From Candidatus Omnitrophota bacterium (GTDB lineage: Bacteria; Omnitrophota; Gorgyraeia; Zapsychrales; JANLHA01), in NCBI GenBank assembly GCA_038222225.1, contig JBBRHV010000008.1, positions 1-56,243 of the forward strand: a stretch of DNA of 56,243 bases, read 5' to 3'. Numbering within the stretch: the stretch's first letter is position 1; each line of letters begins with the position of its first letter. Shown piece after piece: positions 6,056 through 32,039 of the stretch. The position numbers were made by a program, and so were the translations under genes. A model generated the notes under the pieces. It did not search any database. It had not been told where the DNA came from and saw only the letters and a list, made by a program, of their open reading frames with translations.

Positions 6056-6103
6056 AAACCCCTTAGATAATTTTAAATTTTAGCCATCGTCCTGTGTTTT
6101 TTC

Positions 6104-8097: not shown

Positions 8098-8103
8098 GAC
8101 GGT

Positions 8104-8112
8104 ATTATAACA
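8104..8112 (-). promoter_or_regulatory. Candidate extended -10 promoter element (TGTTATAAT) directly upstream of the KAS-like gene
   Basis: The minus strand reads ...TGTTATAATaccgtcATG. The -10 hexamer ends 6 nt before the ATG. No Shine-Dalgarno sequence is visible. Confidence 0.3.
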
Positions 8113-8181
8113 TAAGGCGCACGGCGTGAAAGCCCAAAAGTCAACTCTTTAAGCCCGGCTTTTTAGAGTTCACTCTTCTTT

Positions 8182-8781
8182 TTAATCTCCGACTTCCCGT
8201 GCGTGAAGAATATATTTGGCGAGCATGTCGGTCTCGATGTTCAGCTTTTGACCGATCTTTTTCTTTCCGAACGTGGTGACATCCAGCGTGTGCGGGATCA
8301 GATAAATCGAGAAGGTGTTGGTGTTCTTTTTAACCCACCCGATGGTCAGGCTCACGCCGTCCACGGCCACCGAAGCTTTGGGCGCGATGTATTTCAGCAT
8401 CTTGCGGTCGACCTGGATCTGCCATTCCACATAGTTTTCCATGGTGACCTTTTTCTTGAAGGTTCCCATGCCGTCCACATGGCCGGAGACAAAATGCCCG
8501 CCGAGCCGCGCGTTGACTTTGAGCGCGCGCTCGAGATTCACCTCGCTGCCGGTCTCGGCAAACCCCAGGGTGGTGGCATCCAGCGTTTCTTTCATCAGAT
8601 CAAAGGTCAGAACCTTGCCGCGGATCTTCACCACCGTCAGGCACACCCCGTTAATGGCAACACTGTCCCCGATCTTCACGCCCCGGACCACCCGATCCCC
8701 TTGGACATCCATGGTGATCAGATTTTTCAGGCGCTTAATATTCTTAACCGTTCCTTTTTCTTCCACAATGCCGGAAAACAT
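8182..8781 (-). CDS. ribE: Riboflavin synthase
   Basis: 199 aa with an MFSGIVEEKGTV N-terminus and two lumazine-binding repeats (GDSVAINGVCLTV, ASVAVDGVSLTI). Confidence 0.92.
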   Translation of the reverse strand: MFSGIVEEKGTVKNIKRLKNLITMDVQGDRVVRGVKIGDSVAINGVCLTVVKIRGKVLTFDLMKETLDATTLGFAETGSEVNLERALKVNARLGGHFVSGHVDGMGTFKKKVTMENYVEWQIQVDRKMLKYIAPKASVAVDGVSLTIGWVKKNTNTFSIYLIPHTLDVTTFGKKKIGQKLNIETDMLAKYILHAREVGD

Positions 8782-8799
8782 AGCGAACTCCTTTTTCTT

Positions 8800-9894
8800 C
8801 TAAATTGCGTAACAGACATTTCCTTCCAAACAAAAATCATTTCCGATCGGCGTCAGACGGATATCCTTTAACCCGATGGTTTGATCCACACGGGCCACCT
8901 TCAGGCCGCCCACCGAACTCAACGCATCCTCATCCCCGAAGATCTTCGGCGCGATGTAGATCACCATTCTGTCCACGATCTTTGCCGCCAACGCCTGGCC
9001 GATGACCGTGCTGCCACCTTCGATCAGGACATTGGAAATCTCCTGCCCGGCCAAATACTTCATCAGCCACAGCAGATCGACCTGACCCGCGCGGGTTGGG
9101 CAAACCACAACGCTCACTCCCTTTTTTTCCAACAGAAATTTTTTGCGCGCAGAGGCCTTCGGCGTTGTGGCGATCAAGCAGGAAAACTGATCCAGCAACC
9201 GCGCCTTCAACGGGATTTTTAAAGAGCTGTCCAGAACGATTTTGGTCCAAGGCTTACTTTTCAATGCCGGGCTCAGCTGCGGATCGTCTTTCAGAACCGT
9301 GTTGATCCCCACCAAAATCGCATCAAAGGCATTGCGCTGCTGACGGGCGTACAGACGTGTTTTGGCAGAGGTAATCCATTTCGACTGGCCGGAAGAGGCG
9401 GCCACCTTTCCATCCAAACTTTGAGCGATCTTGACTGTCACAAAAGGCACCTGTTGCGTAATGTACTTGTGAAACGCTGCGTTAAGCGCCTGAGCTTCCT
9501 GCCGCAAAAGGCCGCTGACCACCTCCACGCCGGCCCTTTTGAGTTTTTTGATGGACCGTCCGTTTACTCCCGGGTTCGGATCCCGGGACCCGATGACCAC
9601 CCGCTTGATCCCGGAAGCGATCACTTGATCCACACAGGGAGGGGTTCGCCCCTGGTGAGCGCACGGTTCCAGGGTCACGTACATGGTAGCGCCGCTGGTC
9701 TTCCCTTTGGCCTGGCGCAAAGCCAAAATTTCCGCGTGCGGGCCCCCGCAGCGCTTGTGCCATCCCTCACCCACCAACTTTCCCTGCCGGATGATCACGC
9801 AGCCGACCATCGGGTTGGGAAGCGTTCTCCCCAGTCCCCGCCGGGCAAGCTCCAAGGCATACCCCATGTACTGAATGTCTGTGTTCATAAACAC
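8800..9894 (-). CDS. ribD: Bifunctional diaminohydroxyphosphoribosylaminopyrimidine deaminase / 5-amino-6-(5-phosphoribosylamino)uracil reductase
   Basis: It has the CMP/dCMP deaminase zinc motif HAEILAL...TLEPCAHQGRTPPC, followed by a RibD C-terminal reductase domain. Confidence 0.92.
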   Translation of the reverse strand: MFMNTDIQYMGYALELARRGLGRTLPNPMVGCVIIRQGKLVGEGWHKRCGGPHAEILALRQAKGKTSGATMYVTLEPCAHQGRTPPCVDQVIASGIKRVVIGSRDPNPGVNGRSIKKLKRAGVEVVSGLLRQEAQALNAAFHKYITQQVPFVTVKIAQSLDGKVAASSGQSKWITSAKTRLYARQQRNAFDAILVGINTVLKDDPQLSPALKSKPWTKIVLDSSLKIPLKARLLDQFSCLIATTPKASARKKFLLEKKGVSVVVCPTRAGQVDLLWLMKYLAGQEISNVLIEGGSTVIGQALAAKIVDRMVIYIAPKIFGDEDALSSVGGLKVARVDQTIGLKDIRLTPIGNDFCLEGNVCYAI

Positions 9895-9897
9895 CTC

Positions 9898-10719
9898 TTA
9901 ACCGGCACGCTGCCGCAGCTCTTCAACCACCGCGTAATCCACGCTGACATGTCCGATCAAACTGTAATCGCGCCCCTTGCCGTGAGAATCGGAACCGCCG
10001 GTCGCGATCAGCTGATATTTCTTGGCCAACTTTTCATAAAAGCGCGTTTCCGAGATCGAATTCCCCAAATAATAAACCTCCAGCCCCACCAGGCCGGCAT
10101 CAACAAAACTGGAAATCAATTCATCTTTGAGCGTCTTCATCGGATGCGCCATCACCGCCGACCCTCCGGCGCGGCGGATCAGCGCGATCGCTTCATACGG
10201 ACTCTGCTTAAATTTCGGAATATTGTAAGGGCAGCCTTCTCCCAGAAACCGCGCGAACACATCGGTCACGTCGGCCGCGTATCCCTTTTCGATCAGCACC
10301 TGCGCGATGTGCGGACGGCCGATGGCATCGGTTTTCGAAAGATTCTGAACATCTTCAAAGCTGATGTTGGAATACCCTTTTTCCTGAAGTTTCTCCACAA
10401 TGTCCCGCGCCCGCTGAAGGCGAGCAGAACGGAACTGTTCTAACGCATCGTTGAACTCCTGATGGTTGGGATCCATCAGGTAGCCCAGAATATGAATATC
10501 GGAACCGCCCCATTCCGTCGAAAGCTCGACCCCGGAGATCACCTCCAACGGAAGATCAGCCGCCTCCTCCATCGCCGGTTTGACCCCTTCCACACTGTCA
10601 TGATCGGTGATCGCGATACAGTCCACGCCCTTTGCCGCCGCTATGCGCACAACCTCTTCAGGAGTATCTAAACCGTCCGAACAACATGTATGAATATGTA
10701 GATCTGCGCGTTTTGTCAC
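9898..10719 (-). CDS. PHP-domain phosphoesterase (TrpH/YciV-like)
   Basis: 273 aa with ADLHIHTCCSDG, AITDHD, the HILGY region and GGSDSHG. Its start overlaps the nusB stop, and its stop lies 4 nt from the ribD start. Confidence 0.8.
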   Translation of the reverse strand: MTKRADLHIHTCCSDGLDTPEEVVRIAAAKGVDCIAITDHDSVEGVKPAMEEAADLPLEVISGVELSTEWGGSDIHILGYLMDPNHQEFNDALEQFRSARLQRARDIVEKLQEKGYSNISFEDVQNLSKTDAIGRPHIAQVLIEKGYAADVTDVFARFLGEGCPYNIPKFKQSPYEAIALIRRAGGSAVMAHPMKTLKDELISSFVDAGLVGLEVYYLGNSISETRFYEKLAKKYQLIATGGSDSHGKGRDYSLIGHVSVDYAVVEELRQRAG

Positions 10720-11144
10720 GATGCTGGATTCGATGAGATGATTTCTGTTTTATGGATTTTATCCAGAATACCGTTTACAAATTTGCTGGATTCCAGGTCT
10801 CCGAACCGTTTGGCCAGTTCAACCGCTTCGTTGATGCTGACCTTAGGCGGAATGTCTTTGGCGAAGAGCAGCTCGAACAGCCCCAACCGCAGAACATTGC
10901 GGTCAATAATCGCCATCCGTTTCAGCTGCCAGTTCGTAGCATACGCTGTAATTTTTTGATCAATCTGTTCCAAATTTTGGTGAACCCCGAAGACCAGCCG
11001 TTCCGAAAAACTTTTCACCTCCGGGTCAACCTCGCCTTCGCGCTGCCAAACATCCGCCATCACCGGATGCGCCTCCATGCGGGTCACATCCATTTGGTAA
11101 AGAATCGCTAAAGCAACTTCTCTGGCTTGAGTACGTTTTCGCAT
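10716..11144 (-). CDS. nusB: Transcription antitermination factor NusB
   Basis: 142 aa with RTQAREVALAILYQMD and DRNVLRLGLFELLF...PPKVSINEAVELAKRFG. Confidence 0.9.
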   Translation of the reverse strand: MRKRTQAREVALAILYQMDVTRMEAHPVMADVWQREGEVDPEVKSFSERLVFGVHQNLEQIDQKITAYATNWQLKRMAIIDRNVLRLGLFELLFAKDIPPKVSINEAVELAKRFGDLESSKFVNGILDKIHKTEIISSNPAS

Positions 11145-11164
11145 GAAGAGCTCTCCATTCTGCG

Positions 11165-11626
11165 CTAAACAGAATCTAATGTTTGAACCATCTCGATAGC
11201 AACCTGGGCAGCCTCCCGGCCTTTGTTGTCCCCTTGCTCTTCAGACCTTTTATATGCCTGATCGACCGTTTCGGTTGTAACCACCCCGAAGGCAATCGGC
11301 TTGCCTGTGTCTAAAGACACCCGCATCAGGCCTTGAGCAACCCCTTGCGCCACCAACTCAAAATGATAGGTTTCTCCCCGGATCACACAACCTAAAGCGA
11401 CCACCGCGCAAACGTTGCGTTTTTTTGCTAATCGTTGCGCCAGCACCGGGATCTCTAAAGCGCCCGGAACCCCGAAGACCTGAACGCGCTTTTTAGCAAT
11501 GCCCTGTTTTTGAAATTCATCCAGGCATCCGTCCAGCAAACGCTGAGAAATAAATTCATTGAAACGGGAAACGACCACCGCATACGAGCCGCCCGTTTTT
11601 TTATTCGTTGATTTGGAAACCGTCAT
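11165..11626 (-). CDS. ribH: 6,7-dimethyl-8-ribityllumazine synthase
   Basis: 153 aa with VVVSRFNEFI, VPGALEIP and GCVIRGETYHFELVA. Confidence 0.92.
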   Translation of the reverse strand: MTVSKSTNKKTGGSYAVVVSRFNEFISQRLLDGCLDEFQKQGIAKKRVQVFGVPGALEIPVLAQRLAKKRNVCAVVALGCVIRGETYHFELVAQGVAQGLMRVSLDTGKPIAFGVVTTETVDQAYKRSEEQGDNKGREAAQVAIEMVQTLDSV

Positions 11627-11640
11627 CGCAGCTCCTTCCC

Positions 11641-12849
11641 TTATGGCAAAAAATGGCCCAACTTATCACGCTTCGTGTTCAGATAGCGCTCATTATGTTC
11701 GGTCGCCACAGTCTCGAGCGAAACTCTTTCCACCACCGTCAACCCATACCCTTCCAGCCCGACAATCTTGCGCGGATTATTGGTTAGCAGACGGAGCTTA
11801 TGGATTCCCAAATCCGCTAAGATCTGGGCGCCGATCCCGTAATCCCTCAAATCATCCGGAAATCCCAAAGCCGCATTGGCTTCAACCGTGTCCATCCCTT
11901 GATCCTGAAGACTGTAGGCTTTGAGTTTATTTAAAAGCCCAATTCCTCGGCCTTCCTGGCGCATATAAAGAATGATCCCGGACCCTTCCGCGGCGATCGC
12001 CTTCATCGAAGCGGCCAGCTGCGCGCGGCAATCACACCGCAAAGAACCGAACACATCCCCGGTCAAACATTCCGACTGAACCCGGACCAGGTGCGGCTTT
12101 TCATCTGTCATGTCTCCCATGACCAAGGCCAAATGCGTTTGATCTTCGACACCCGAACGGTAGCCGATCATCAAAAAATCGCCATATTCCGTCGGAATCA
12201 TCGCTTCAGAGACCCGCTCGATCATCTGCTCATAGGTCCGGCGGTGCTCGATCAAACTGGCGATCGAGCAAATCTTCAGTTTGTGCTTTTTGGCAAATTT
12301 CAAAACATCATCCGTGCGCGCCATGGTTCCGTCCTCGTTCATGATCTCGCAGATTACGCCGGCCGGATACAATCCTGCCAAACGGGTCAGATCCACTGCC
12401 GCCTCGGTATGGCCGGCGCGAACCAAAACTCCTCCGCGACGGGATTCCAAAGGAAACAAATGTCCCGGAGTTTCCAGATCACTGGGCTTTGTGTTGGGGT
12501 CAATCAAAACCTCGACCGTACGCGCGCGGTCAAATGCCGAAATCCCGGTGGTAATCCCGTTAATCGCGTCCACCGAAATCGCCCAGCCGGTACTGCTGCG
12601 CTGATGCTGATGATGCGACAAAATATTATCCTTCATCGGATGAAGCCCCAACTGTCTTAAACGGTCAGCTTCCATCGGAACGCAGATCAATCCGCGGGCA
12701 TGTTTCGCCATAAAATTGATCAAGTCCGGAGTCACATGCTCAGCCGCAACCAAAATATCACCCTCATTCTCACGGCCCTCATCATCCATCACAACGATCA
12801 TCTGGCCCTCTTTTAATTCCTTCAAAATCTCTTCAATCGAACTGAACAT
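11641..12849 (-). CDS. ribBA: Bifunctional 3,4-dihydroxy-2-butanone-4-phosphate synthase / GTP cyclohydrolase II
   Basis: 402 aa. The N-terminal half has DDEGRENEGD and the GHTEA region. The C-terminal half has ECLTGDVFGSLRCDC and YMRQEGRGIGL. Confidence 0.92.
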   Translation of the reverse strand: MFSSIEEILKELKEGQMIVVMDDEGRENEGDILVAAEHVTPDLINFMAKHARGLICVPMEADRLRQLGLHPMKDNILSHHQHQRSSTGWAISVDAINGITTGISAFDRARTVEVLIDPNTKPSDLETPGHLFPLESRRGGVLVRAGHTEAAVDLTRLAGLYPAGVICEIMNEDGTMARTDDVLKFAKKHKLKICSIASLIEHRRTYEQMIERVSEAMIPTEYGDFLMIGYRSGVEDQTHLALVMGDMTDEKPHLVRVQSECLTGDVFGSLRCDCRAQLAASMKAIAAEGSGIILYMRQEGRGIGLLNKLKAYSLQDQGMDTVEANAALGFPDDLRDYGIGAQILADLGIHKLRLLTNNPRKIVGLEGYGLTVVERVSLETVATEHNERYLNTKRDKLGHFLP

Positions 12850-14071: not shown

Positions 14072-14626
14072 ATGAATATTCGGTGTTTTTTGGCGTTAAC
14101 CATCCCCCGGCAAGCCCAAGCTGAACTTGCGGGCATGCAGAAGTTTCTGCAAAACCACGAAGCCAAAGCCCGCTGGGTCAAACCGGACAACATTCACTTA
14201 ACCTTACGTTTTTTAGGGGACCGGCCTGCGAAAAAGGTCGAGCAGATCGCAGCCGCGTTGCCCTCGTTCTGCCCGGGCTTTCAGCCGTTCAAAACAACCA
14301 TCGAGGCTCTGAATGGATTTCCCAATTCAAAAAATCCAAAGGTCATCTGGGCCGGGCTTTCAACCGGCAGTGAAGAAACTTTAAAAATTTATCAGGCGGT
14401 CAATGACGGACTGGCGCACCTGGGAATTCCGAAAGAGCGTGAAGAATTCATCCCGCATCTGACCCTGGCGCGCTGCAAAACCCCCCAAGAATCACGCTTA
14501 ACCGCCTCTGCCATAAAAAAAACCGGCATCACGCCGGTCCACACCGAGATCATTTCCCTCGTTTTCTACAAAAGCACCCTCTCCTCCACGGGCTCGATCT
14601 ATGAGGTCATTCAGTCCCTGCCCTGA
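14072..14626 (+). CDS. thpR: RNA 2',3'-cyclic phosphodiesterase (2H phosphoesterase, LigT/ThpR)
   Basis: 184 aa with two H-x-T-x motifs (HLTLRFLG, HLTLARC). Confidence 0.85.
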   Translation: MNIRCFLALTIPRQAQAELAGMQKFLQNHEAKARWVKPDNIHLTLRFLGDRPAKKVEQIAAALPSFCPGFQPFKTTIEALNGFPNSKNPKVIWAGLSTGSEETLKIYQAVNDGLAHLGIPKEREEFIPHLTLARCKTPQESRLTASAIKKTGITPVHTEIISLVFYKSTLSSTGSIYEVIQSLP

Positions 14627-15381
14627 GACTTGGCCCGGAATTCTAAAAAGAACCGCGCATACAACACATAGGCCACAACGGCGATTGAAACCCATTGAAA
14701 AGATGTCAGCCCGAAATAAAGCGGATGAACAGCCCGCCAGAATTCCTCAAAGAATCGAAATGAAAAATAAAGCAGAATAAAAACCGCGAACAGGATCCCC
14801 GGTCTTTTGGCGCGCTTCTGAAACGCGCTTAAAACAAAAAACAGGATCAAACAAAATGCCGCTTCATAGAGCTGCACCGGATGCCGGAGAATCCCATCGC
14901 CAAAATCCACTCCCCAGGAAAATGTTGTCGGCTTTCCAAAACAGCATCCCTGAAAAAAACATCCCAGCCGGCCGATGGCGATCCCCAAAGCGATCGGGGC
15001 GGCCAAAACATTCCCGGTCCGTGTTTTGACCCCGATTTTTTTCTTCATCCATTCGACCGCCAGCGTGCCGCCGATCAGCCCACCGACAATAGTTCTCCCG
15101 GACAAAAGCAGCCTGATGTCAGGAAAGGCGCCGACGATCTCGCGCCAATGAACAACCCAAACCGGCAGTTTCGCTCCGATCACTCCGCCGACCAACGCGG
15201 CGATCACCACAAAGAACATGCGGTCATCCGCCGGCTTCATCTTCTTTACATTTCTCCAGATTAATATACAGGGGATCAGGATGGCCAGCAGCATAAAGAC
15301 CGGATAAGCCGGAAGCTGCATTCCCCAACCATCAAAAAGAACCGGGCAAACGCCCCAAGGCTCTGAAGGAACAGCGGTCAT
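14611..15381 (-). CDS. lgt: Prolipoprotein diacylglyceryl transferase
   Basis: A polytopic protein with GRLGCFFQGCCFGKPT and HPVQLYEA. I placed the start at MTAVPSE (ATG at 15379-15381), 2 nt after the upstream stop. The 3' end overlaps thpR by 16 nt (convergent genes). Confidence 0.85.
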   Translation of the reverse strand: MTAVPSEPWGVCPVLFDGWGMQLPAYPVFMLLAILIPCILIWRNVKKMKPADDRMFFVVIAALVGGVIGAKLPVWVVHWREIVGAFPDIRLLLSGRTIVGGLIGGTLAVEWMKKKIGVKTRTGNVLAAPIALGIAIGRLGCFFQGCCFGKPTTFSWGVDFGDGILRHPVQLYEAAFCLILFFVLSAFQKRAKRPGILFAVFILLYFSFRFFEEFWRAVHPLYFGLTSFQWVSIAVVAYVLYARFFLEFRAKSQGRD

Positions 15382-15383
15382 TC

Positions 15384-15800
15384 TTAAACTCTTTTTCGTT
15401 GAAATAACAGTTTGTAGATCTGCAGTCCCGTGCAATATCCTAGCGCGCCCAACGTCTTGACGATCGCGATCACAAAAACGATCCGCCAGCCGATCCGCTC
15501 ATCAATGACATACACAAACAGCAGCAGGATCAAATGAATAAACGCCCCCAGTCCCTGGGCAAACGCGATTCCGTTCTCATCCAGCTCTTCCATTCTCGAA
15601 GATGGAAACCATTTGCCCAATGTCTTTCCATAAAAAACAATGAGCGGCGATTTTGGAACTTTCAGGATCGCCGATGACAACAAGATCAGAAGGTTAAGCG
15701 CCAGCAACCATTTGACCCTTAAAAAAAATGAGACCCATAATACGAGCGCGATGCTCCACCGGCAAAATTTAAACGCGTGTCTGGAAACGCTTACGGTCAT
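15384..15800 (-). CDS. Small polytopic membrane protein, DUF4395-like
   Basis: 138 aa with four hydrophobic segments. It has LDENGIAFAQGLGAF and a C-terminal GALGYCTGLQIY, which resemble the DUF4395 pattern. This assignment is from memory only. Confidence 0.4.
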   Translation of the reverse strand: MTVSVSRHAFKFCRWSIALVLWVSFFLRVKWLLALNLLILLSSAILKVPKSPLIVFYGKTLGKWFPSSRMEELDENGIAFAQGLGAFIHLILLLFVYVIDERIGWRIVFVIAIVKTLGALGYCTGLQIYKLLFQRKRV

Positions 15801-16408
15801 TGTCCGCTCCTTTTCTTGAAAACCCGGGGAACAAACATCCCCACCCGATGTTTATATTCTGTATAACTCGGAAAAAATTTTTCCAGCAGGGCCTCCTCCT
15901 GGCTGGCCCGATAATACATCAAAGGAATAAAAATAATTGTGTTGGCCAGGAATCCCCCCCAATTGGAATAGACCAATGCCGACCCGTAAAACATAAGGAT
16001 CAGCGACGCATACAACGGGTGTCTGACCCACCCATAAACATCATGGCTCACCAATTCGTGGTCTTCATAGATCTTGATCTGGTTCGACCAGTTCTTCCGC
16101 AGGACCAACCGGCCCCGGATATTGATGTAACAGCCGAACACCACCATGAAGACCCCGCTGATGATCATCATCAAACGGACCAGGCTATTCTGGACCGGAA
16201 GAACATGCAGGCGGAAACGGACCATCAGATAAAAACCGACAAAAAAAAGCGTCATGGTCCCGGTGGCCACAACGCTCTTCTTAGTGCTCCTGGTATCACT
16301 GCGCTTGTCGTATTCAAAAAAATTCATGAAGATCGCCACAAACAAAGCCATCACGCAAAGACCGATGATGCTGCGGGCAATAGCTTCCGCTAACGTGACT
16401 CCGCTCAT
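15797..16408 (-). CDS. ICMT/PEMT-family membrane methyltransferase
   Basis: 203 aa polytopic protein with HELVSHDVYGWVRHPLYASL (the RHPxY motif region). Its stop overlaps the next gene's start by 4 nt. Confidence 0.75.
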   Translation of the reverse strand: MSGVTLAEAIARSIIGLCVMALFVAIFMNFFEYDKRSDTRSTKKSVVATGTMTLFFVGFYLMVRFRLHVLPVQNSLVRLMMIISGVFMVVFGCYINIRGRLVLRKNWSNQIKIYEDHELVSHDVYGWVRHPLYASLILMFYGSALVYSNWGGFLANTIIFIPLMYYRASQEEALLEKFFPSYTEYKHRVGMFVPRVFKKRSGQ

Positions 16409-16409
16409 A

Positions 16410-17816
16410 TTATGCGCTCCTTGTCCGATAAAACATATTATAAGACGAAAAGGGTATGCGTTTCAAATCCGGCGTGATCATGTGCACGCATTCTTTCTTG
16501 AGCGCGTTCAGATCGCAATTATAGAGATCCACAAAAGAGGTCACGCTCATCCGGAAAGTATTCTCATCCACGTAGCGGATCCGCTCGTCCCGGCTTTTGG
16601 ACATCAGCTCAGAGGGAACGATCGGCAAAAAATCTTTCAGAAACGCCATGCATTGGCAAAGCTGACCGTTTGAAAAAGCGGCTTGCGCTTCGGCTAGGAT
16701 ATCCTCCAGATTAAAGGCAAATGTGTTTTTGATCATCGGCAAGTAATCCCGGATCCTGGCATTGCGCGTCACCGGAACAAATTTTCCGTCCTGTTTGTAA
16801 AAATAGATCACGCTCACCCGTTCGACATTACAGGGAAGCGGGATAAAGTCACTCAACCGGACATCTCCCTGCGTCTGCTTCTCAATGCGCTTCAAAATAC
16901 CGGTCAAGGTCATCGCGCTCTGTCCGTCATAGCGGTTATACTCCGCAAAACGCGCCACCGGCTGAAAATTGACCCCGCGGACGTAAGGCGCTTGCATACC
17001 GAATTCAATGATCCGTCCCAGGTCCCCGTCATTGACACCTTTTTGAATGGTCGGCACCAGCGTGATCGGGATCTGGTATTTGGCAAGCTGCTCCACGGCC
17101 TTCAGTTTGATGTCCTTAAATTCCGGGCTGCGCAGTGTGGAATAGATCGCGTCGGAAAATCCGTCAAACTGCAGATAGACCTCAAAGTGCCCCTTAAACT
17201 GCGCTAAGCCCCGCACGAACTCCTCGTCCTCGGCGATCCGGCGGCCGTTGGTATTGAGCATCACATATTTTGCCTTTTGCCGGGCCAGACGGATAATGTC
17301 AAAAATTTGCGGGTGCAGGGTCGGCTCTCCTCCGCTGATCTGGACGACTTCCGCGCGTCCCCCTTCGGCATCATTGTAAAAATTCAGCATGCGTTCCACA
17401 GTCTGAAGGTCCAGGTCATTCTTTTCACAGTCGGAGTGCGCATAACAAATCGGGCAATGCGTGTTGCAGCGCTGGGTAATTTCAATCACGCCGATACAGG
17501 TATGCTGCCGATGCTGCGGGCACAACCCGCAATCAAACGGGCAACCGAGCGCGTTCTCCATCTGCCGCGAAGAATCCGTGCCCGGCTTATCAAACGAATA
17601 CCGGTCACGATAATACTGCGCGTCCTCTTCCAGAAAATCAAAAAATTCTCCGTGCTCGGCGCAGGACCTTTTTAAAAAGACCTGGCCGTCATCTTCAAAG
17701 ACTTCGGCCGCGATCTGTTTTTTGCACACAGGACAAACCGAATGTGTTTGATTTAAGACATCCAGCTTTTTAAACATAAAACGACTTTGGGATAAGGCAA
17801 GCGATGGTTTCATCAT
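16410..17816 (-). CDS. Radical SAM enzyme, MJ0619 / GDGT-MAS (Tes)-like architecture
   Basis: 468 aa. The N-terminus has CPVC...SCAEHG (rubredoxin-like). This is followed by GCPFDCGLCPQHRQHTC (an auxiliary cluster motif), CNTHCPICY (CX3CX2C) and ISGGEPTLHP. Confidence 0.6.
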   Translation of the reverse strand: MMKPSLALSQSRFMFKKLDVLNQTHSVCPVCKKQIAAEVFEDDGQVFLKRSCAEHGEFFDFLEEDAQYYRDRYSFDKPGTDSSRQMENALGCPFDCGLCPQHRQHTCIGVIEITQRCNTHCPICYAHSDCEKNDLDLQTVERMLNFYNDAEGGRAEVVQISGGEPTLHPQIFDIIRLARQKAKYVMLNTNGRRIAEDEEFVRGLAQFKGHFEVYLQFDGFSDAIYSTLRSPEFKDIKLKAVEQLAKYQIPITLVPTIQKGVNDGDLGRIIEFGMQAPYVRGVNFQPVARFAEYNRYDGQSAMTLTGILKRIEKQTQGDVRLSDFIPLPCNVERVSVIYFYKQDGKFVPVTRNARIRDYLPMIKNTFAFNLEDILAEAQAAFSNGQLCQCMAFLKDFLPIVPSELMSKSRDERIRYVDENTFRMSVTSFVDLYNCDLNALKKECVHMITPDLKRIPFSSYNMFYRTRSA

Positions 17817-17834: not shown

Positions 17835-18212
17835 CTAGAAACGGCTGAACATGAGGAAGCAAAACCCAAACAGCACAAACGGGGCAACGACCCCTGTGAT
17901 CATTCCGGCCAGAATATAACTTTTTCTTATTTTCCAAAGATAAACTCCGACTACAATAATCCATACAACAGAACAACTGCTCAGTACGATGGATCCAGGT
18001 CCGGCGTAATCATAGAAATAAGAAAACAACAATGTTAAAAATCCCCCGAACCACATCCCGTTGCATATCAACAATAAAAGGCCTGTAAAAAAATCCAAAA
18101 CCTTATCTCGCCTCGTTTTTTCTGCTGGCGGAGGATCAATCAAGCGCACACGATCAACAACAGCCACGCTGACCAGAGAAAGAATGGCTAAGAAAATCAA
18201 AAACGGGAACAT
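17835..18212 (-). CDS. Small integral membrane protein, unknown function
   Basis: 125 aa with four hydrophobic segments. I recognised no motif. Confidence 0.5.
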   Translation of the reverse strand: MFPFLIFLAILSLVSVAVVDRVRLIDPPPAEKTRRDKVLDFFTGLLLLICNGMWFGGFLTLLFSYFYDYAGPGSIVLSSCSVVWIIVVGVYLWKIRKSYILAGMITGVVAPFVLFGFCFLMFSRF

Positions 18213-18238: not shown

Positions 18239-20533
18239 CTACCGATTACACTGTTGATCATCTTTTCCGATCGATAACCGGTTATACAAAAATGAAACAC
18301 CCAAAAAAACACATCCCAGAGCAATGAAGGTGATGATCTTAAAAATAATATTCAGCTGAGCCATATCAACGACGATCAGCCGCAAGATCACCAGTCCAAA
18401 AAAACAGATCCCCGCAATCCGGCAATACGCATCTTTCAGGAAGATCCCTAAAACGGCAAGCACCATCCCGCAGATACCCCACCCTAATGTTGCCCATTGA
18501 TCCGGAAGAACCTGATAGGTTTTTAAGCCGATAAGGACCGCCCCCAACGAGAACAGAACGATCTTTTCAAAATCACCATCCTCTTTATCCACGTCCGACC
18601 ATTTCAATATGGAATATAATACGAAAGCCACCATCATAAAACTCACCGTCAAAATGCCTTCCCGGGCCGAAACCGGCACGAAAAGCTGATGATAAAAAAG
18701 CAGATCCGCCGCCGGAACCGCCATAGCCAGATACCCCTGAAAACGGAATCGCTTCAATTTAAAAACAAAAGATAACAGCCACCAACCGGCGGAAAAAAGA
18801 ACCAGCGCCAATGAAAGGTCCAGTCCCTTAAGGAACGTCGCCATCATAAATCCAAACAAAATGACCGCTGCCAGCGAGAACCCATGATTGATCATATCGA
18901 CCACGCCATACGGATCATCTTCCGGCTGTCTTAGAAAACGATTGATACAAAAACATGCGAACATGGAAATAGCGGCAAATAAATATAATGTCGTCATCGC
19001 CGACCATTGGCACGAGCCCACGTTCCAGATCCAATTTTCATTCAGCGTTCGGATCAGCAGCCATACTAACGAAACCACTGCCACCGCGTCACCCAAAAGA
19101 CGATAGACCTTTTCCTGACTGACCCGGCCGGAAAACAATAATAACGGCGCCTCGGCAAACCAGATCAAAAGCGTGTCTTGCGCCGAGAAGCGCAAGGGGA
19201 TCGCCAGCGTGATCGCCGAGATCCCGATGACCAGATCGCTTAACGCTATTTTTTGAGACTTCAAGCTCCTCATCACAAAGGCCATCATGGCATAAGCGAT
19301 CCCCAATCCCAAGATCCCTTGGAACTGATAGGCTTCAAAAAGATCCATAAAGACCGGAAATCCCATCATCAGATATACGGCTGCAGCCGCGCCATTGATG
19401 CCAAGCGCCACCTTCTCCGTGTCGGGATCCTTCGAGCGCAAGGCGACCATGTGCGAGCCCAGCATGAATACGATCCAATATCCTGTTAAAAATGCCAGAT
19501 TCAGCATATCACCTTCGCGGCCCGACGCCAGATGCGGAGCGACCCAGACATAATGCGCTCCGAATGTCACCACTCCCCCGAGGATCAGCAGCCGGTACCA
19601 GTTAAACCAGTACACAAAAAGCAAAAGAAGCCCAGCCAGAATGATCGTACTCAAAAACGTGAATTCGTTCACATGAATGATCGTGGTGGTCAGATACGCA
19701 AAAAATATGGCCCCGGCCATCACGGACTCTTCTTTATACTGGAGTGCATGACGGATCATGAACCCCGCGATCAAACACAAAAGCCCGATTTCAACGGTGC
19801 TGCTCTGGATCAGCTTCACCGCCGGAAAATGATAGATCGCAAATGTGATAAAATACACCAAGGCCCACCCGCCGATCAAAAGGACCCGGCCATGCTGTTT
19901 CCAGGATTCTTTCTTTTCCAACCGCGCTCCGAACACAAACATCAGCCCGCTCAACCCATACCCGAAAAAGACCTTGGCCACCGCCCCCATATACTGGAAC
20001 GAATAGGTGATCAAAAACCCGATCCCCAACAAAAGGATCCCCATCCCGATCTTATTTAACCAAAACCGTATAAAATCCACATCGCTTTCGGAGGAGACCG
20101 GCGCAAGAACAACCGCCGGCTGAACGAACTTCACGCTCTCCGGCCTCGGCGCCTGTTCAAGGTGAGGCGTAATTTTCGGCAGAGCATCTAAAAATGAATC
20201 GGCTGTAACCGGTGCCGGCGAAACCTGCTGACCGCCGGCTTCCAGATTGCGAATGGCCTCTTCCAGCCTTTGAATGCGCCCTTCCAAAACAACGGATGAA
20301 TACCGGACCGACTGCAATTCTTTTTTGAGGTCCTCCAGCGAACGGATCCCGGCGCCGGCATTACTAGGCTCAATAAAATTTTTGTGTTTATCTTCTGCGA
20401 TCCAAACCGCCAAAAGCGAAAACGGCCCGATGATCACACCCAGCAGAAAATATTGCCATCCTGGCAGCCCCTTAGAATCGGCCCACATAAACGCGATCAC
20501 CGCCGGCACCAACCACCAAAGAATATATGTCAT
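18239..20533 (-). CDS. Large polytopic membrane protein, DUF2339-like
   Basis: 764 aa. It has N-terminal TM segments, a coiled coil (LEDLKKELQSVRYSSVVLEGRIQRLEEAIRNLE) and then about 20 hydrophobic helices. Confidence 0.6.
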   Translation of the reverse strand: MTYILWWLVPAVIAFMWADSKGLPGWQYFLLGVIIGPFSLLAVWIAEDKHKNFIEPSNAGAGIRSLEDLKKELQSVRYSSVVLEGRIQRLEEAIRNLEAGGQQVSPAPVTADSFLDALPKITPHLEQAPRPESVKFVQPAVVLAPVSSESDVDFIRFWLNKIGMGILLLGIGFLITYSFQYMGAVAKVFFGYGLSGLMFVFGARLEKKESWKQHGRVLLIGGWALVYFITFAIYHFPAVKLIQSSTVEIGLLCLIAGFMIRHALQYKEESVMAGAIFFAYLTTTIIHVNEFTFLSTIILAGLLLLFVYWFNWYRLLILGGVVTFGAHYVWVAPHLASGREGDMLNLAFLTGYWIVFMLGSHMVALRSKDPDTEKVALGINGAAAAVYLMMGFPVFMDLFEAYQFQGILGLGIAYAMMAFVMRSLKSQKIALSDLVIGISAITLAIPLRFSAQDTLLIWFAEAPLLLFSGRVSQEKVYRLLGDAVAVVSLVWLLIRTLNENWIWNVGSCQWSAMTTLYLFAAISMFACFCINRFLRQPEDDPYGVVDMINHGFSLAAVILFGFMMATFLKGLDLSLALVLFSAGWWLLSFVFKLKRFRFQGYLAMAVPAADLLFYHQLFVPVSAREGILTVSFMMVAFVLYSILKWSDVDKEDGDFEKIVLFSLGAVLIGLKTYQVLPDQWATLGWGICGMVLAVLGIFLKDAYCRIAGICFFGLVILRLIVVDMAQLNIIFKIITFIALGCVFLGVSFLYNRLSIGKDDQQCNR

Positions 20534-21285
20534 GACCCTTCCTCCTCTTGATGTATTTCTTTGCGTTCTCTCATTTTTTCCCGCATCGACTCAGCAGGAA
20601 TCCCGAACCACACATCGCGCGGTTCAACTTTGGTGTCTTTCAACAAGACCGCGCTGGCCCCGATCATGGCTTTATCGCCGATCTCACAGCCCGGCATAAT
20701 GGTACAGTGTGAACCGAGCGTCACATTTTTTCCGATCTTGACCTTCTTTAATTTCAACCGGCCATGTTCCACCATGTGGCAATCAATGATCGCGCCCCCG
20801 CCGACCACCGTGTTATCCCCAATCTCAAGCAGGCTGGCATCAAAAACATATTTGGAATTGAACTGCACATTTTTGCCCAGCTTTGCGCCTAACAGACGGA
20901 ACAACAGATTAGAAAACGGCGTCAGCAGAATGAAATCAATAAAGGTATATTGAATCATATTATACAGGGAACTCAAAAAGGCCCACTTGATCGCCTCCAA
21001 GGAAAATAATGCGTATGTTCCTTCTTTCAGTTTCAAGCGGAATATAAAACGAAATAAGCCGACAAGCAAGACCAGGGTCAAACCGAACAGGAAATATCCT
21101 AAAGCCAAAACTGTGCCCACTAAAAACAACCGCAACCATAATGGCGCTGCGGCGGTCGATTCCCAGATATGAAACAAAAGAAAGAGTCCCGGCACCATGG
21201 CTGCCCCAAAAAAAACCGCCCCCATCATGTACATAAAGAGCGCAAACAAGATCTGCGCCAATGTGATCCATAACCACTTCATCAT
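20530..21285 (-). CDS. Membrane-anchored hexapeptide-repeat (left-handed beta-helix) acyltransferase
   Basis: 251 aa with N-terminal TM helices. The C-terminal half has GDNTVVGGGAIID...IGKNVTLGSHCTIMPGCEIGDKAMIGASAVL. Its stop overlaps the DUF2339-like gene's start by 4 nt. Confidence 0.7.
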   Translation of the reverse strand: MMKWLWITLAQILFALFMYMMGAVFFGAAMVPGLFLLFHIWESTAAAPLWLRLFLVGTVLALGYFLFGLTLVLLVGLFRFIFRLKLKEGTYALFSLEAIKWAFLSSLYNMIQYTFIDFILLTPFSNLLFRLLGAKLGKNVQFNSKYVFDASLLEIGDNTVVGGGAIIDCHMVEHGRLKLKKVKIGKNVTLGSHCTIMPGCEIGDKAMIGASAVLLKDTKVEPRDVWFGIPAESMREKMRERKEIHQEEEGS

Positions 21286-21294
21286 CGCCCTCCT

Positions 21295-22044
21295 CTAAAA
21301 TGTTTGATCAAGCCAGCTCCGGATTTCTCCCAAAAATTCATTTTTATGTTTGCGCATCAAATATTCTGCGTGCGGCCCGCCCTGGAGGATCTTCAAATGT
21401 TTCTGCGTAGGCGTCTTTTCATAGAGCGTTTGAGCATGCCACGGTTTGATCGTCCAATCCTCATCGCCGTGGATATAACAGACCGGCACCGCTAAACTCC
21501 CCACAATATCCAACGGCTGAACCTTGGGCTGCCAGAACGGGCCCGGCCGGGCGCCTTTTCCTTTGCCCCCGGGGCCAAGATTGAAAATGATATCGTTCTC
21601 AACATCTAGCTCCCACCAACGGAAATCAATTTTGTGAAATTCCGAAGGTCCGCTCACAAAGATCAGATTGTCCATCAGATCCGTTGTTCCGGCCACGATC
21701 ATGCCGATCCCAGCCCCGAACGAGAATCCGATGACCGCGATTTTTTCATAATCCGGCCGGAGATAGCGCAAGACAGCTTCCAGGTCCATCGGCTCTTTGG
21801 AAGCCCAATGAAACAGGCCGCCGCTTTTGCCGTGCCCGCGGAAGTCCATAATCGCGATATCATATTGATCAAGAAGCTTTTGACCCAACTCCTGAAGAAG
21901 TGGCGAGGATTTACTGTTATAAAACCCATGGGCGATCACGATCAGTTTCTTCTGGCCGGCCTTATAATGATCAAATTCGATCTTTAATTTATCTTCTGTC
22001 TGGACTATTCTACTTTCTTTAACGACACCCATGTGAAACTCCAA
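21295..22044 (-). CDS. Alpha/beta hydrolase
   Basis: 249 aa with VIAHGF, a nucleophile elbow GFSFGAG, and HGDEDW...GPHAE. Confidence 0.8.
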   Translation of the reverse strand: MEFHMGVVKESRIVQTEDKLKIEFDHYKAGQKKLIVIAHGFYNSKSSPLLQELGQKLLDQYDIAIMDFRGHGKSGGLFHWASKEPMDLEAVLRYLRPDYEKIAVIGFSFGAGIGMIVAGTTDLMDNLIFVSGPSEFHKIDFRWWELDVENDIIFNLGPGGKGKGARPGPFWQPKVQPLDIVGSLAVPVCYIHGDEDWTIKPWHAQTLYEKTPTQKHLKILQGGPHAEYLMRKHKNEFLGEIRSWLDQTF

Positions 22045-22055
22045 TAATGTTTGCT

Positions 22056-22610
22056 TTATAAATAACTTTCGATCGACTGGTCTCCTAGCATCAAAGACTC
22101 GATAACCATTTCACCGTTCAAGATACGCACGACCATATAGGCATCCCTCTTCTCCCGGGTCGAATGTTTAAGGTACAAAGCTTCTGCCTGCGGCGCCTTT
22201 TTCTCATTCATATAATACCGGTCAACTGGGAAGGTGAAATTAGCTGAACTCTCCCCTTCAAATGGCATATAATTCATAATTCTGGTTTTAAAATAATTCC
22301 CTGCCATTGGCTTATCAGCAACCAATCGTTCAACGTAAGCATACCCATCCTTATCAACATTAATAAGGGCATAACCGATATGTTTGTTCTGCGCAATCTT
22401 TTTGTCATCTTCGCTGGATAATGGAGCTGTGTTTTGTTCGTTTCTGAGCGCCACATATCTTCCACGGAAAATATCATAAGGGTCAACCGGTGCCGTCTTA
22501 AACTTATACACGACTCCCTTATTTAAAATCCGTTCATTGGTCTTCATGAATGAAGCAGGTACCGCTAGTTGGGCCACTATAAGGAGAACTAATGATATTT
22601 TCTTGATCAT
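22056..22610 (-). CDS. GDYXXLXY-domain membrane-anchored protein
   Basis: 184 aa with an N-terminal anchor. DPYDIFRGRYVALRN corresponds to the family motif. It pairs with the upstream DUF2157-like gene through a 4-nt overlap. Confidence 0.6.
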   Translation of the reverse strand: MIKKISLVLLIVAQLAVPASFMKTNERILNKGVVYKFKTAPVDPYDIFRGRYVALRNEQNTAPLSSEDDKKIAQNKHIGYALINVDKDGYAYVERLVADKPMAGNYFKTRIMNYMPFEGESSANFTFPVDRYYMNEKKAPQAEALYLKHSTREKRDAYMVVRILNGEMVIESLMLGDQSIESYL

Positions 22611-23965
22611 TGGACGGCCTCCTGCTTAACTTTCTTAGATAAAAACATATTCGTAAACACAAAGGCTGTTCCGATAATCATAAAAACGATACCCCGTTCC
22701 AGAATTCCCAATGACGAATCTAAAAAGCGTGTTAAAAGAACCAGCCCGGAAATTAAAATGCCGCAATTTGTCAGGTCCAACCGGATTTCGCGAACCCCAA
22801 AATAAATGCACAGGCCCCCCAGAAAAAATAAATAGGAACTGAAAATACCCGCCGATATATCATCGCTTCCCGACCCGCTGGCGATTGAATAACAGAGCAC
22901 GGTGATAATGGGGATAACTCCAAAAGCTGTTTCAAAAATCCTTTTTTGTTTCGCGGCATGCACCAAAAATACAATGGCGGCCACAAACATCCCGGCAACA
23001 ATCACATAATCCATATACCCTGCGGCTGTCTGAAAACCCCACCCGGCGCGGTAATACCGCCAGCCGACGTCTTGCCAAACCCAATTGAAGGTAAACAGAT
23101 AGGACAGCACAACCAGCCCGGCCATTCCATAGTTGCGGAAAGACCTTTGCCAAAATCCGTCGCCGTCATCAAACCATAATTTTCCGGCCAAATATAATGT
23201 CGCAAAAAACGCGCTGTAAACGATCACCCAAAGCCCGGGAACCACCTTTTCCAAAGACACGCCCATTCCCACCGAGAGCGCCACGCAGGTGGCAAACGAA
23301 AGCCATAAACTGCTCATCGAAAACCGGTCCGCTGATAAATGTTTCCAAAAATACGGGACCACCGCCGCGAACAGCGGCCAGAACAATATAGCGTTACCTC
23401 CCAGATTCTGAGCATAGCCCGCCCAACAGGAGATCCCGATCAAATAAGCGACCGCCGCAAGTGTCGAAGACATTATATAAACCAACGGCATCGACAACAA
23501 CATCCAGACCAATAAAAACCGGTCAAATGTCCCGGGAATGTGATAGATTTGGCTGATCAGAGCGATCGCGGCGCCAACCGACAGGATATTAAAAATCGAC
23601 GAACCCTCCCGGATCGCAAAGCTGCTTTTCTCTTTTACAACTGCCCAAGAGACGAGTGCCAGCGAGATCACCAACGGCGCAAAGGCCAAACAGGTTTTTG
23701 TGAACCGCGAAAAATCATCCCATCCAAAGGCAAAAAACAAAATAATGCCTAGCCCGATACAGATCGCTCCAATGACCGCAAAGATCCCCAAGACAATATT
23801 GATACCGCCCTTTGCCGCCAGCTCCTGCCGATAGTAGGCGCGGATTTTCTCTGCGTTGCCGTCGCTTACAAAGCCCATGCCGACAAACTTAGGCAGCTCC
23901 TGGTTCAGCCATTTCACAAATTTTGCTAATTTCATATCGACCTTCCTCCATTGGATCAGACTCAT
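22607..23965 (-). CDS. DUF2157/DUF4401-like polytopic membrane protein
   Basis: 452 aa. The N-terminal soluble segment is LAKFVKWLNQELPKFVGMGFVSDGNAEKIRAYY, followed by about 12 TM helices. Confidence 0.55.
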   Translation of the reverse strand: MSLIQWRKVDMKLAKFVKWLNQELPKFVGMGFVSDGNAEKIRAYYRQELAAKGGINIVLGIFAVIGAICIGLGIILFFAFGWDDFSRFTKTCLAFAPLVISLALVSWAVVKEKSSFAIREGSSIFNILSVGAAIALISQIYHIPGTFDRFLLVWMLLSMPLVYIMSSTLAAVAYLIGISCWAGYAQNLGGNAILFWPLFAAVVPYFWKHLSADRFSMSSLWLSFATCVALSVGMGVSLEKVVPGLWVIVYSAFFATLYLAGKLWFDDGDGFWQRSFRNYGMAGLVVLSYLFTFNWVWQDVGWRYYRAGWGFQTAAGYMDYVIVAGMFVAAIVFLVHAAKQKRIFETAFGVIPIITVLCYSIASGSGSDDISAGIFSSYLFFLGGLCIYFGVREIRLDLTNCGILISGLVLLTRFLDSSLGILERGIVFMIIGTAFVFTNMFLSKKVKQEAVQ

Positions 23966-23988
23966 TTTACAATGAATAACATAATTTT

Positions 23989-31936: not shown

Positions 31937-32039
31937 AATGAAAAACCGCACCTTGTATCCCGCATATCGCACCCCTTACGACACCATGCGAACATACGAA
32001 CACGAAAGATGCGGCACCCTTCTTTTTAAATAAAAATAT

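Follow-up and report, generated by a model that had tools for sequence, protein, structure and literature searches.

Tes, the archaeal tetraether synthase also called GDGT-MAS (MJ0619; 7TOL, 7TOM; NF045702), belongs to the radical S-adenosylmethionine (SAM) enzymes and acts in glycerol dialkyl glycerol tetraether (GDGT) synthesis. It joins lipid tails via a cluster-S-C intermediate and binds ester-linked bacterial phospholipids in its pocket, and its metal sites have been defined (Lloyd et al. 2022). From bacteria, 456 Tes homologs have been listed, and a role in the synthesis of branched GDGTs (brGDGTs) has been proposed (Zeng et al. 2022). Mss of Thermotoga and Thermoanaerobacter, likewise a radical SAM enzyme and remotely related to Tes, is proposed to couple bacterial lipid tails (Sahonero-Canavesi et al. 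2022). In protein lipidation, R143 and R239 of E. coli Lgt (5AZB, 5AZC) form the pocket that activates the phosphatidylglycerol C3-O bond for attack by the acceptor cysteine (Mao et al. 2016), and ICMT (Methanosarcina acetivorans, 4A2N; PF04140) methylates the carboxylate of an S-lipidated cysteine. Here we have analyzed a locus in which relatives of Tes, Lgt and ICMT stand together, in a stretch of 56,243 nucleotides from a Candidatus Omnitrophota bacterium (contig JBBRHV010000008.1; the whole stretch is called the window below). By comparison with loci from many phyla, we found that the gene arrangement is conserved far beyond chance, and that the universal core of the module is a Tes-fold radical SAM enzyme (rSAM) together with a dedicated Lgt paralog.

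The module in the window consists of the following genes, in which Cys-tail denotes small membrane proteins with an invariant cysteine near the C-terminus.

17835..18212, minus strand: Cys-tail family membrane protein, 125 aa, four helices (from open reading frame (ORF), alignment and geometry)
16410..17816, minus strand: Tes-fold radical SAM enzyme (rSAM), 468 aa (Pfam Zn_ribbon_HMPTM and Radical_SAM)
15797..16408, minus strand: integral-membrane SAM-dependent methyltransferase of the ICMT/PEMT fold, 203 aa (Pfam ICMT/PEMT)
15384..15800, minus strand: DUF4395 four-helix membrane protein, 138 aa (Pfam DUF4395)
14611..15381, minus strand: Lgt-family paralog, 256 aa (Pfam LGT; ATG start at 15381)

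In the order rSAM, methyltransferase, DUF4395 and Lgt paralog, neighboring genes are 1 nt apart, overlap by 4 nt and are 2 nt apart, respectively. An earlier note, made from the letters of the window, had described these four genes as a tight operon with spacings or overlaps of 1-4 nt, and the ORFs were confirmed at its coordinates, as were the protein families by Pfam. The fifth gene, separated from the rSAM gene by 18 nt on the upstream side, is beyond the coordinates of that note. The longest ORF of the Lgt paralog extends over 14611-15435 with a TTG start at 15435; the start is most likely the ATG at 15381, which matches the relatives.

Linkage of the core pair and the Lgt paralog

We scanned genomes for the rSAM gene, using one genome per species, and obtained 80 loci, of which tier 1, the clade of the window, has rSAM proteins at 45-52% identity and tier 2 at 35-41%. 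All 8 complete distant loci of tier 1 showed the order rSAM-methyltransferase-DUF4395-LGT, and 12 metagenome loci showed it as well, so the operon that was proposed from the window is genuinely conserved. The tier-1 hosts, as labelled, are Clostridiaceae, Oscillospiraceae, Lentimicrobium, an actinobacterium, Holophaga and a Methanosarcinales archaeon, and those of tier 2 include Paenibacillus, Bacillus, Brevibacillus, Hymenobacter, Flavobacterium, Chitinophaga, Rhodanobacter, Acidobacteria, Planctomycetes, Chloroflexi and a Halobacteriales contig. Across the rSAM-anchored genome loci, a same-strand Lgt-family gene was present in 57 of the 65 that were informative. In tier 2 the distance between this gene and the rSAM gene was at most 150 nt in 38 loci, at most 3 kb in 18 more and over 3 kb in 1, and no further conserved gene family beyond the Lgt paralog was found around the tier-2 rSAM genes. 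The reverse test gave the same result: when metagenome contigs were anchored on the Lgt paralog, the rSAM gene or its partners were found in 61 of 64 informative loci.

Bona fide Tes genes, by contrast, stand alone. Within 5 kb of the genes of M. jannaschii, Methanohalobium, Methanothermus and a 706-kb metagenome contig, LGT, ICMT and DUF4395 genes were found in none of the four loci. Two independent scans together sampled 150 bacterial and archaeal rSAM homologs, which form a clade apart from archaeal Tes and are nearly all linked to the Lgt paralog. In one metagenome contig (L158, 4872-8809) the order is permuted to LGT-rSAM-methyltransferase-DUF4395, indicating that the association outlives rearrangement.

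Some loci carry archaeal labels. The Methanosarcinales contig (L008, 89.7 kb, from a metagenome-assembled genome) has a complete tier-1 module, with genes at 5974-10147 and 11027-12070 that include the Lgt-family gene and two Cys-tail genes; the module adjoins an eRF1/Pelota-family gene, and by this single marker gene the contig looks archaeal. Further such loci are L006 (archaeon), which ends inside the methyltransferase gene, and L026 (Halobacteriales), in which the Lgt gene is seen in the arrangement LGT-rSAM-Cys-tail. According to a 2025 paper, no Lgt homologs had so far been found in archaea.

The Lgt paralog of the window matched Pfam LGT (PF01790) with 129 bits over the whole protein. 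The NCBIfam lgt models scored it at 75.7 bits against a cut-off of 118.9 (TIGR00544) and at 110 against 334 (NF000778), and paralogs from four other loci also fell under the NCBIfam lgt cut-offs, in every tier. We surveyed the residues of 67 rSAM-linked paralogs in the numbering of E. coli Lgt. The N146 position is Cys in all 67, giving G-R-x-G-C-F in place of the canonical G-R-L-G-N-F, and the signature of the window paralog reads G-R-L-G-C-F-F-Q-G-C-C-F-G as compared with the Lgt motif G-R-L-G-N-F-I-N-G-E-L-W-G. H103 is replaced by Val, Leu, Met or Ile, and E151 by Cys (tier 1, Planctomycetes) or by Leu or Val (most of tier 2). On the other hand, R143, G154, Y235, R239, E243(D) and the H-P-x-Q-L-Y-E segment are retained, so that the LGT domain and R143, G154, Y235, R239 and E243 are shared with E. 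coli Lgt and N146 and H103 are not. In E. coli Lgt, the substitutions of H103 by A, N, Q, R or Y and of E151 by A or Q abolish activity, and those of H103 fail in complementation (Mao et al. 2016). Accordingly, we consider that the paralog keeps the chemical center and alters the parts tied to donor selection and the arm-2 region. The gene had been named lgt in the earlier note. A housekeeping lgt was rejected on the distinct residue signature, with its invariant change of N146 to Cys, and on the reverse synteny; the gene is instead a dedicated paralog with a changed active site. A second lgt gene was not found within the 56-kb window.

The radical SAM enzyme and its relation to Tes

The rSAM protein matched the solved GDGT-MAS chain 7TOL over its full length with an E-value of 6e-70. 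Its AlphaFold2 model (pLDDT, the predicted local distance difference test, 82.9; pTM, the predicted template-modeling score, 0.86) was aligned to 7TOM by Foldseek with template-modeling (TM) scores of 0.81 and 0.77 over 488 columns, and the runner-up fold was MoaA at 0.41. As modeled, the enzyme has the whole four-domain fold of GDGT-MAS, consisting of the rubredoxin domain, the N-terminal cluster domain, the radical SAM core and the C-terminal cluster domain. The three cysteine motifs that had been read from the window were found in the claimed order, namely C28-P-V-C31...C52-A-E-H55, G91-CPFDCGLCPQHRQHTC107 and C117-NTHC121-PIC124-Y. These correspond to the metal sites of MJ0619. The rubredoxin-type C-X2-C-X20-C-X2-H site is C28/C31/C52/H55 in the window and C9/C12/C33/H36 in MJ0619, and the [Fe4S4]N site of three Cys and one His is C92/C96/C99/H102 and C73/C77/C80/H83; the CX3CX2C radical SAM motif is C117/C121/C124 and C98/C102/C105. 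All three have the same spacing in both proteins.

In the C-terminal region, the equivalent of MJ0619 C456 is retained as C443, and C338, C438, C455 and C470 are replaced by R, V, E and S. Met439 and Tyr459 of MJ0619 are replaced by Thr426 and Met446. These two residues are strictly conserved in 1,000 archaeal GDGT-MAS homologs, but the M439A and Y459F/L variants are still active, and thus they are a family signature and not a catalytic requirement. C107, H105 and C329, in turn, are common to all 81 bacterial and archaeal rSAM relatives that we compared, and the window enzyme shows them as its own invariant residues beside an identity to Tes of about 31%. On this alignment, three of the four metal sites are kept and the C-terminal cluster region is rewired. 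The third cluster is possibly retained under a different ligand set, for which C107, C329 and C443 are candidates.

In a profile comparison and a phylogeny, both of which the earlier note had proposed, the enzyme was placed next to Tes but outside it. The top profile matches were TrsS and Tes, and not unrelated peptide maturases. TrsS (NF045646) was the best curated profile at 357.3 bits, below its cut-off of 490, and its alignment was full length (rSAM residues 23-461 to model positions 2-431 of 441), including the C-terminal domain, which fits Tes poorly. The Tes profile (NF045702) gave 300.3 bits against a cut-off of 450, and its best stretch covered only residues 23-341. Members from four other loci of tier 1 and tier 2 were likewise under the cut-offs of both models. 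A neighbour-joining tree was built without TrsS from 80 sequences, namely 60 Lgt-linked rSAM proteins and 20 archaeal Tes proteins (NCBI-named or closely related, of euryarchaeal type only). The two groups separated in 40 of 40 bootstraps, so the window enzyme does not group with archaeal Tes. Its mean identity is 31% to Tes, 53% to its own clade in tier 1 and 37% to tier 2. The MJ0619 layout claimed in the earlier note thus stood as a full-length match with the shared fold and sites, and the assignment to the Tes family itself was lost on the cut-off, the tree and the missing Met439, Tyr459 and four cysteines. Taken by its sequence, rSAM is a full-length MJ0619/GDGT-MAS relative outside the Tes equivalog.

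By analogy with Tes, which it resembles in fold, rubredoxin site, N-cluster, CX3CX2C motif and the C456 equivalent, the window enzyme probably acts on a lipid chain. It differs from Tes in that window-type genes are found mainly in bacteria not known to make tetraethers. For TrsS, the sole mention found in a literature search was a table entry in a selenoprotein review, and the window rSAM gene has no selenocysteine codon. Mss is set apart from rSAM here by its description in the literature only: it occurs in anaerobes without Tes homologs and works alone in E. coli, whereas the window-type family comes with an Lgt paralog and includes many aerobes.

Small proteins, clade-specific genes and surroundings

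The Cys-tail protein of the window ends in KIRKSY-ILAGMITGVVAPFVLFGF-C-FLMFSRF. In an alignment of this protein with 40 linked counterparts, the sole invariant column was the Cys near the C-terminus. Across 78 sequences, this Cys follows an uncharged stretch with a median length of 18 aa, the loop before the stretch has an average net charge of +2.1, and the tail past the Cys has a median of 9 aa and a mean net charge of +0.33. The residues flanking the Cys are small, for example F-G-A-C, L-G-I-C and N-A-A-C. A lipoprotein signal peptide is built in the same way, from a basic n-region, a hydrophobic h-region, small residues and Cys, and here such an element sits at the C-terminus of a membrane protein. 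According to the positive-inside rule, its Cys would be directed to the outer side of the membrane, which is also the side of the Lgt active site. Lgt acceptors have an N-terminal lipobox, whereas the candidate acceptors here have a non-canonical motif near the C-terminus, and the canonical lipobox fits only 4 of 79 Cys-tail proteins, which is consistent with the need for a dedicated transferase.

In many tier-2 loci, one to four small ORFs of 63-140 aa with two to four hydrophobic helices stand directly after the rSAM gene. At least one Cys-tail copy was found in 42 of 66 tier-2 loci, with 56 occurrences downstream of the rSAM gene and 3 upstream of it. In tier 1 a Cys-tail gene abuts the cluster in 14 of 20 loci, mostly after the Lgt gene. 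A control based on a Cys in the last 25 residues was dropped, since it had a background of 55% among other small hydrophobic ORFs because the spurious ORFs of GC-rich loci are Cys-rich; the alignment and a geometry test were used instead. About 1% of similarly sized ORFs pass the geometry test, and the window protein passes. The window ORF shows a coding-like surplus of synonymous changes against its relatives, and it diverges faster than the enzymes, with 61% identity to the same relative to which the enzymes are 84% identical. One member, of 220 aa (L033, 7919-8581), has its conserved Cys in G-S-S-S-C and continues with a linker rich in Lys and Pro and then with a further domain of some 140 residues; it resembles an ordinary lipoprotein whose signal-anchor is unusually long.

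The Cys-tail proteins were found to be covered by none of the families of Pfam or NCBIfam. The model that they matched most often was NF058595 ([quoted passage not shown]), whose name implies an inverted, C-terminal anchor of lipoprotein type and thus the same idea. Membership was rejected, and the model serves only as a lead: 4 of 41 proteins matched, all under the 37-bit cut-off (best E-value 0.0076; 14.5 bits shown), and the window protein did not match. A literature search on "lipo-invert" found no paper, and no partner-enzyme model named "lipo-invert" matched the Lgt paralog or rSAM.

The methyltransferase and DUF4395 genes always co-occur; they are confined to tier 1 and both are absent from tier 2. 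Accordingly, they belong to the module in the window, as had been proposed, but not to its core. The methyltransferase scored over the cut-off for PF04140 (38 bits) and PF04191 (37 bits) and matched the archaeal ICMT structure 4A2N (residues 17-196 to 8-193 of 194; E-value 4.9e-13), with the cofactor motif RHP-x-YA kept as RHPLYA in the window and RHPMYA in 4A2N. It reached 80.8 bits against a cut-off of 160 in NF040696 (protein-S-isoprenylcysteine O-methyltransferase). The activity of ICMT on an S-lipidated cysteine would fit a module built around such a residue. However, the Cys is not C-terminal here, no tail-removing protease is encoded and the methyltransferase is absent from the larger tier 2; the ICMT/PEMT fold is also used by lipid and small-molecule methyltransferases (PEMT, MddA, LmtA).

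The DUF4395 protein (PF14340) scored 47.7 bits, above the gathering threshold of 24.5, and has two invariant cysteines, C13 in an "FCR" motif and C123 in a "G-x-C" motif. Most tier-1 DUF4395 proteins (L007-L014, L086-L114) end in a Cys-rich tail, Y-x-C...G-x-C-C. Those of the window's clade end without it in a basic Q-R-K-R-V, and this may reflect the loss of an element that binds metal or thiols. That DUF4395 could be related to the Cys-tail proteins as a longer form was rejected at an hhalign probability of 0.4%, and literature searches on DUF4395 found nothing relevant.

The wider neighborhood of the module contains the following genes.

18239-20533, minus strand: DUF2339 membrane protein
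20530-21285, minus strand: membrane-anchored hexapeptide acyltransferase
21295-22044, minus strand: alpha/beta hydrolase
22056-22610, minus strand: GDYXXLXY protein
22607-23965, minus strand: DUF2157 protein
23989-27402, minus strand: MFS-PlsC-AMP-binding (LplT-PlsC-Aas-like) fusion, 1137 aa
29646-30101: PgpA
30111-30683: PgsA-type CDP-alcohol phosphatidyltransferase

Six co-directional minus-strand genes (18239-27402) lead into the module, and no gap on the way exceeds about 55 nt. They are common to relatives at 83-84% identity and to no distant locus, and the GDYXXLXY and DUF2157 genes are missing in L001, one of two close relatives. The earlier note had called the surroundings lipid-centered. 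The fusion, PgpA and PgsA-type genes are indeed there, but they are common to close relatives only, and for this reason the DUF2339, hexapeptide acyltransferase, hydrolase, LplT-PlsC-Aas fusion, PgpA and PgsA genes were rejected as parts of the module. A second radical SAM gene (30680-31972, minus strand), which adjoins the PgsA-type gene, encodes a UPF0004-Radical_SAM-TRAM protein, a methylthiotransferase of MiaB/RimO type, and is unrelated to the module.

On the other side, a gene for an RNA 2',3'-cyclic phosphodiesterase (LigT/ThpR; 14072-14626, plus strand) converges on the Lgt paralog, and the 3' ends overlap by 16 nt. A terminator-like minus-strand hairpin lies at 14540-14520, within the ligT coding region; promoter and terminator scans of the locus were at chance level and say nothing about the operon. 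Further along is a minus-strand riboflavin cluster (8800-12849) with a ribD-type deaminase/reductase gene (8800-9894), ribH (11165-11626) and ribBA (11641-12849), interleaved with a PHP-domain gene (9898-10719) and nusB (10716-11144) in an order that is kept in close relatives.

Working of the module and its meaning

We tentatively read the module as a protein-lipid modification system, with somewhat less than even confidence: the Lgt paralog would lipidate the Cys of the small proteins and rSAM would then modify the lipid chains. We infer each chemical step of this mechanism; what was observed are the gene content, conservation, fold, ligand pattern, Lgt signature and Cys-tail geometry. The Lgt paralog, with its center of R143, R239, Y235 and E243 kept, would transfer diacylglyceryl or a related lipid from a glycerophospholipid to a thiol, and the acceptor thiol would be that of the invariant Cys in the small proteins, which like a lipobox Cys stands where a segment resembling a signal peptide has its outer end. 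By analogy with GDGT-MAS, rSAM would employ a third Fe-S cluster and 5'-deoxyadenosyl radicals for the activation of an otherwise unactivated lipid-chain carbon, and could form a new C-C (or C-S) bond, by which the attached lipid would be cross-linked or macrocyclized. In the clade of the window, the ICMT-type enzyme would methylate the product, and DUF4395 may have an accessory role that is possibly thiol- or redox-related. The multiplicity, fast divergence and non-canonical motif of the small proteins fit dedicated substrates.

A more specific version, which we put forward as an unlikely one, is an "inverted lipoprotein" pathway. The Lgt paralog would add diacylglyceryl to the tail Cys and rSAM would form a C-C bond at the ends of the acyl chains, and the resulting macrocycle or link to a lipid of the opposite leaflet would staple the protein to a membrane-spanning lipid; the clade of the window would add a methyl ester of ICMT type, echoing eukaryotic CaaX processing.

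Several points weigh against a protein-lipid system. Since H103 and E151 are replaced, the paralog may not be an Lgt-type transferase, and since the C-terminal cluster ligands of rSAM differ from those of GDGT-MAS, the coupling chemistry may differ as well. The topology is awkward, considering that the Cys is near the outer leaflet and a radical SAM enzyme works at the cytoplasmic side, and neither a signal peptidase II-like nor a CaaX-type protease is encoded in the module. A Cys-tail gene was not detected in 24 of 66 tier-2 loci and 6 of 20 tier-1 loci. The window protein is not detected by a profile trained on tier 2, and its assignment to the family draws on the alignment, the geometry, its likeness to tier-1 counterparts and one weak phmmer match to a Brevibacillus counterpart (E-value 4e-4). 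Finally, a search of public sequencing runs for the locus gave a single match, a sediment DNA metagenome, and no transcripts.

Another explanation is that rSAM couples the tails of bulk membrane phospholipids, giving lipids of the diabolic-acid or membrane-spanning type, in which case the Lgt paralog would handle or remodel the phospholipid substrate, the methyltransferase would modify the head group and the small proteins would be accessory. This is the brGDGT hypothesis of Zeng et al. 2022 applied to the module, and we consider it unlikely here, yet far from negligible. The Tes fold and Tes-type metal sites agree with it, as do the pocket of GDGT-MAS that takes ester-linked bacterial phospholipids and the genes for phosphatidylglycerol synthesis and acyl recycling near the module in the window. 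Bacteroidota, Bacillales, Xanthomonadales and Acidobacteria, to which many of the hosts belong, are rich in iso-branched fatty acids, whose terminal isopropyl group resembles the end of a phytanyl chain; if the link is real, this would fit Tes-like chemistry on iso-branched acyl chains. The brGDGT producer S. usitatus has Tes homologs, and "one or both" of them have been invoked (Halamka et al. 2022). Against bulk coupling, the tested producers of diabolic and iso-diabolic acids lack Tes homologs, which occur in 3 of 14 Acidobacteria that make iso-diabolic acid (Sahonero-Canavesi et al. 2022). The hosts include Bacillus, Paenibacillus, Flavobacterium, Hymenobacter and Rhodanobacter, a range that speaks against a membrane-spanning lipid in abundance, and Bacillus, Flavobacterium, Hymenobacter and Halobacteria have not been reported to make such lipids. 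Bulk coupling also leaves unexplained both an obligatory Lgt-fold protein with a retained thiol-transfer center and tandem small proteins that conserve one Cys, and the lipid-gene surroundings are not conserved past close relatives. The earlier note had concluded on an uncharacterized bacterial module for modifying membrane-lipid tails or for membrane-spanning lipids; a conserved module with a Tes-fold enzyme remains of this, but the lipobox-like Cys of the linked small proteins points to a protein-lipid conjugate.

Alternatively, the proteins may form an enzyme complex that acts on a free lipid, a polyprenol or a quinone-like substrate, with the small proteins and DUF4395 as anchors or redox subunits and the Cys as a cluster ligand, thiol relay or disulfide partner. 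The rSAM protein has no predicted transmembrane segment and thus needs a means of docking to the membrane. The invariant Cys gained by the Lgt paralog at the N146 position, with two more in tier 1, the two invariant Cys of DUF4395 and the many loci without a detectable small gene are also in line with such a complex. We regard it as rather unlikely, considering that structural subunits seldom occur as two to four fast-diverging tandem copies, that the last helix has the Cys on its far end, which is probably the outer one and remote from a cytoplasmic enzyme, and that the member of L033 carries its additional domain past the Cys in the manner of a lipoprotein.

Maturation similar to that of ribosomally synthesized and post-translationally modified peptides (RiPPs) is improbable. 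In this case rSAM would directly alter the peptide chain of the small proteins, for example by cross-linking it at the Cys through a thioether or a C-C bond, and the Lgt-like protein would be a scaffold, exporter or immunity factor. Tandem small paralogs do adjoin the radical SAM gene, and the radical SAM core weakly matches SPASM and sactipeptide maturases. However, these profile matches extend only over the core common to radical SAM enzymes (about residues 109-270), at E-values of 1e-14 or weaker, far under the cut-offs, and the structural TM-scores to SPASM and sactipeptide maturases are at most 0.37. The full-length fold including the lipid-pocket domain matches GDGT-MAS alone, and no SPASM or twitch Cys pattern was found in rSAM. 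The small proteins, moreover, are integral to the membrane, and apart from small residues no conservation is seen around their Cys. Chance adjacency of an ordinary Tes-type enzyme, a housekeeping lgt and unrelated membrane genes agrees with the simple Pfam label LGT of the last gene, but it can practically be set aside, given the two-way linkage across many phyla, the invariant signature of the Lgt subfamily with its scores under the lgt cut-offs and the true Tes loci without these neighbors.

We searched the literature for a radical SAM enzyme with a linked Lgt paralog and obtained nothing relevant, and no paper was found that describes the module or its small proteins; apparently, the module is widespread, undescribed and built from known folds. 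A 2026 review lists bacterial Tes homologs as bioinformatic detections only. MA_1114, the second homolog of Tes in M. acetivorans, gave only trace macrocyclic archaeol (Zeng et al. 2022), and a search with the Methanosarcinales rSAM member returned no M. acetivorans protein among the best 120 matches. Zeng et al. 2022 also reported that Halobacteria with Tes homologs make no GDGT. The Lgt-linked module, which the Halobacteriales-labelled contig carries, could explain this puzzle.

brGDGTs underpin paleotemperature and pH proxies, their biological sources are a long-standing open question, and bacterial Tes homologs are the leading genomic candidates. The homologs described here are apart from Tes, and nearly all of them are linked to an Lgt paralog and come from hosts not known for such lipids. 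Counts of "Tes homologs" may therefore misidentify brGDGT producers. If the inverted-lipoprotein reading were true, most of the "bacterial Tes homologs" that serve as markers of brGDGT producers would be unrelated to brGDGT synthesis. These hypotheses are testable in cultured bacteria with complete modules, with the five-gene form in Mangrovibacterium marinum and the core form in cultured Paenibacillus, Bacillus, Flavobacterium, Hymenobacter and Chitinophaga. If the Cys-tail proteins are substrates, the module would represent a new protein lipidation coupled to radical lipid chemistry.

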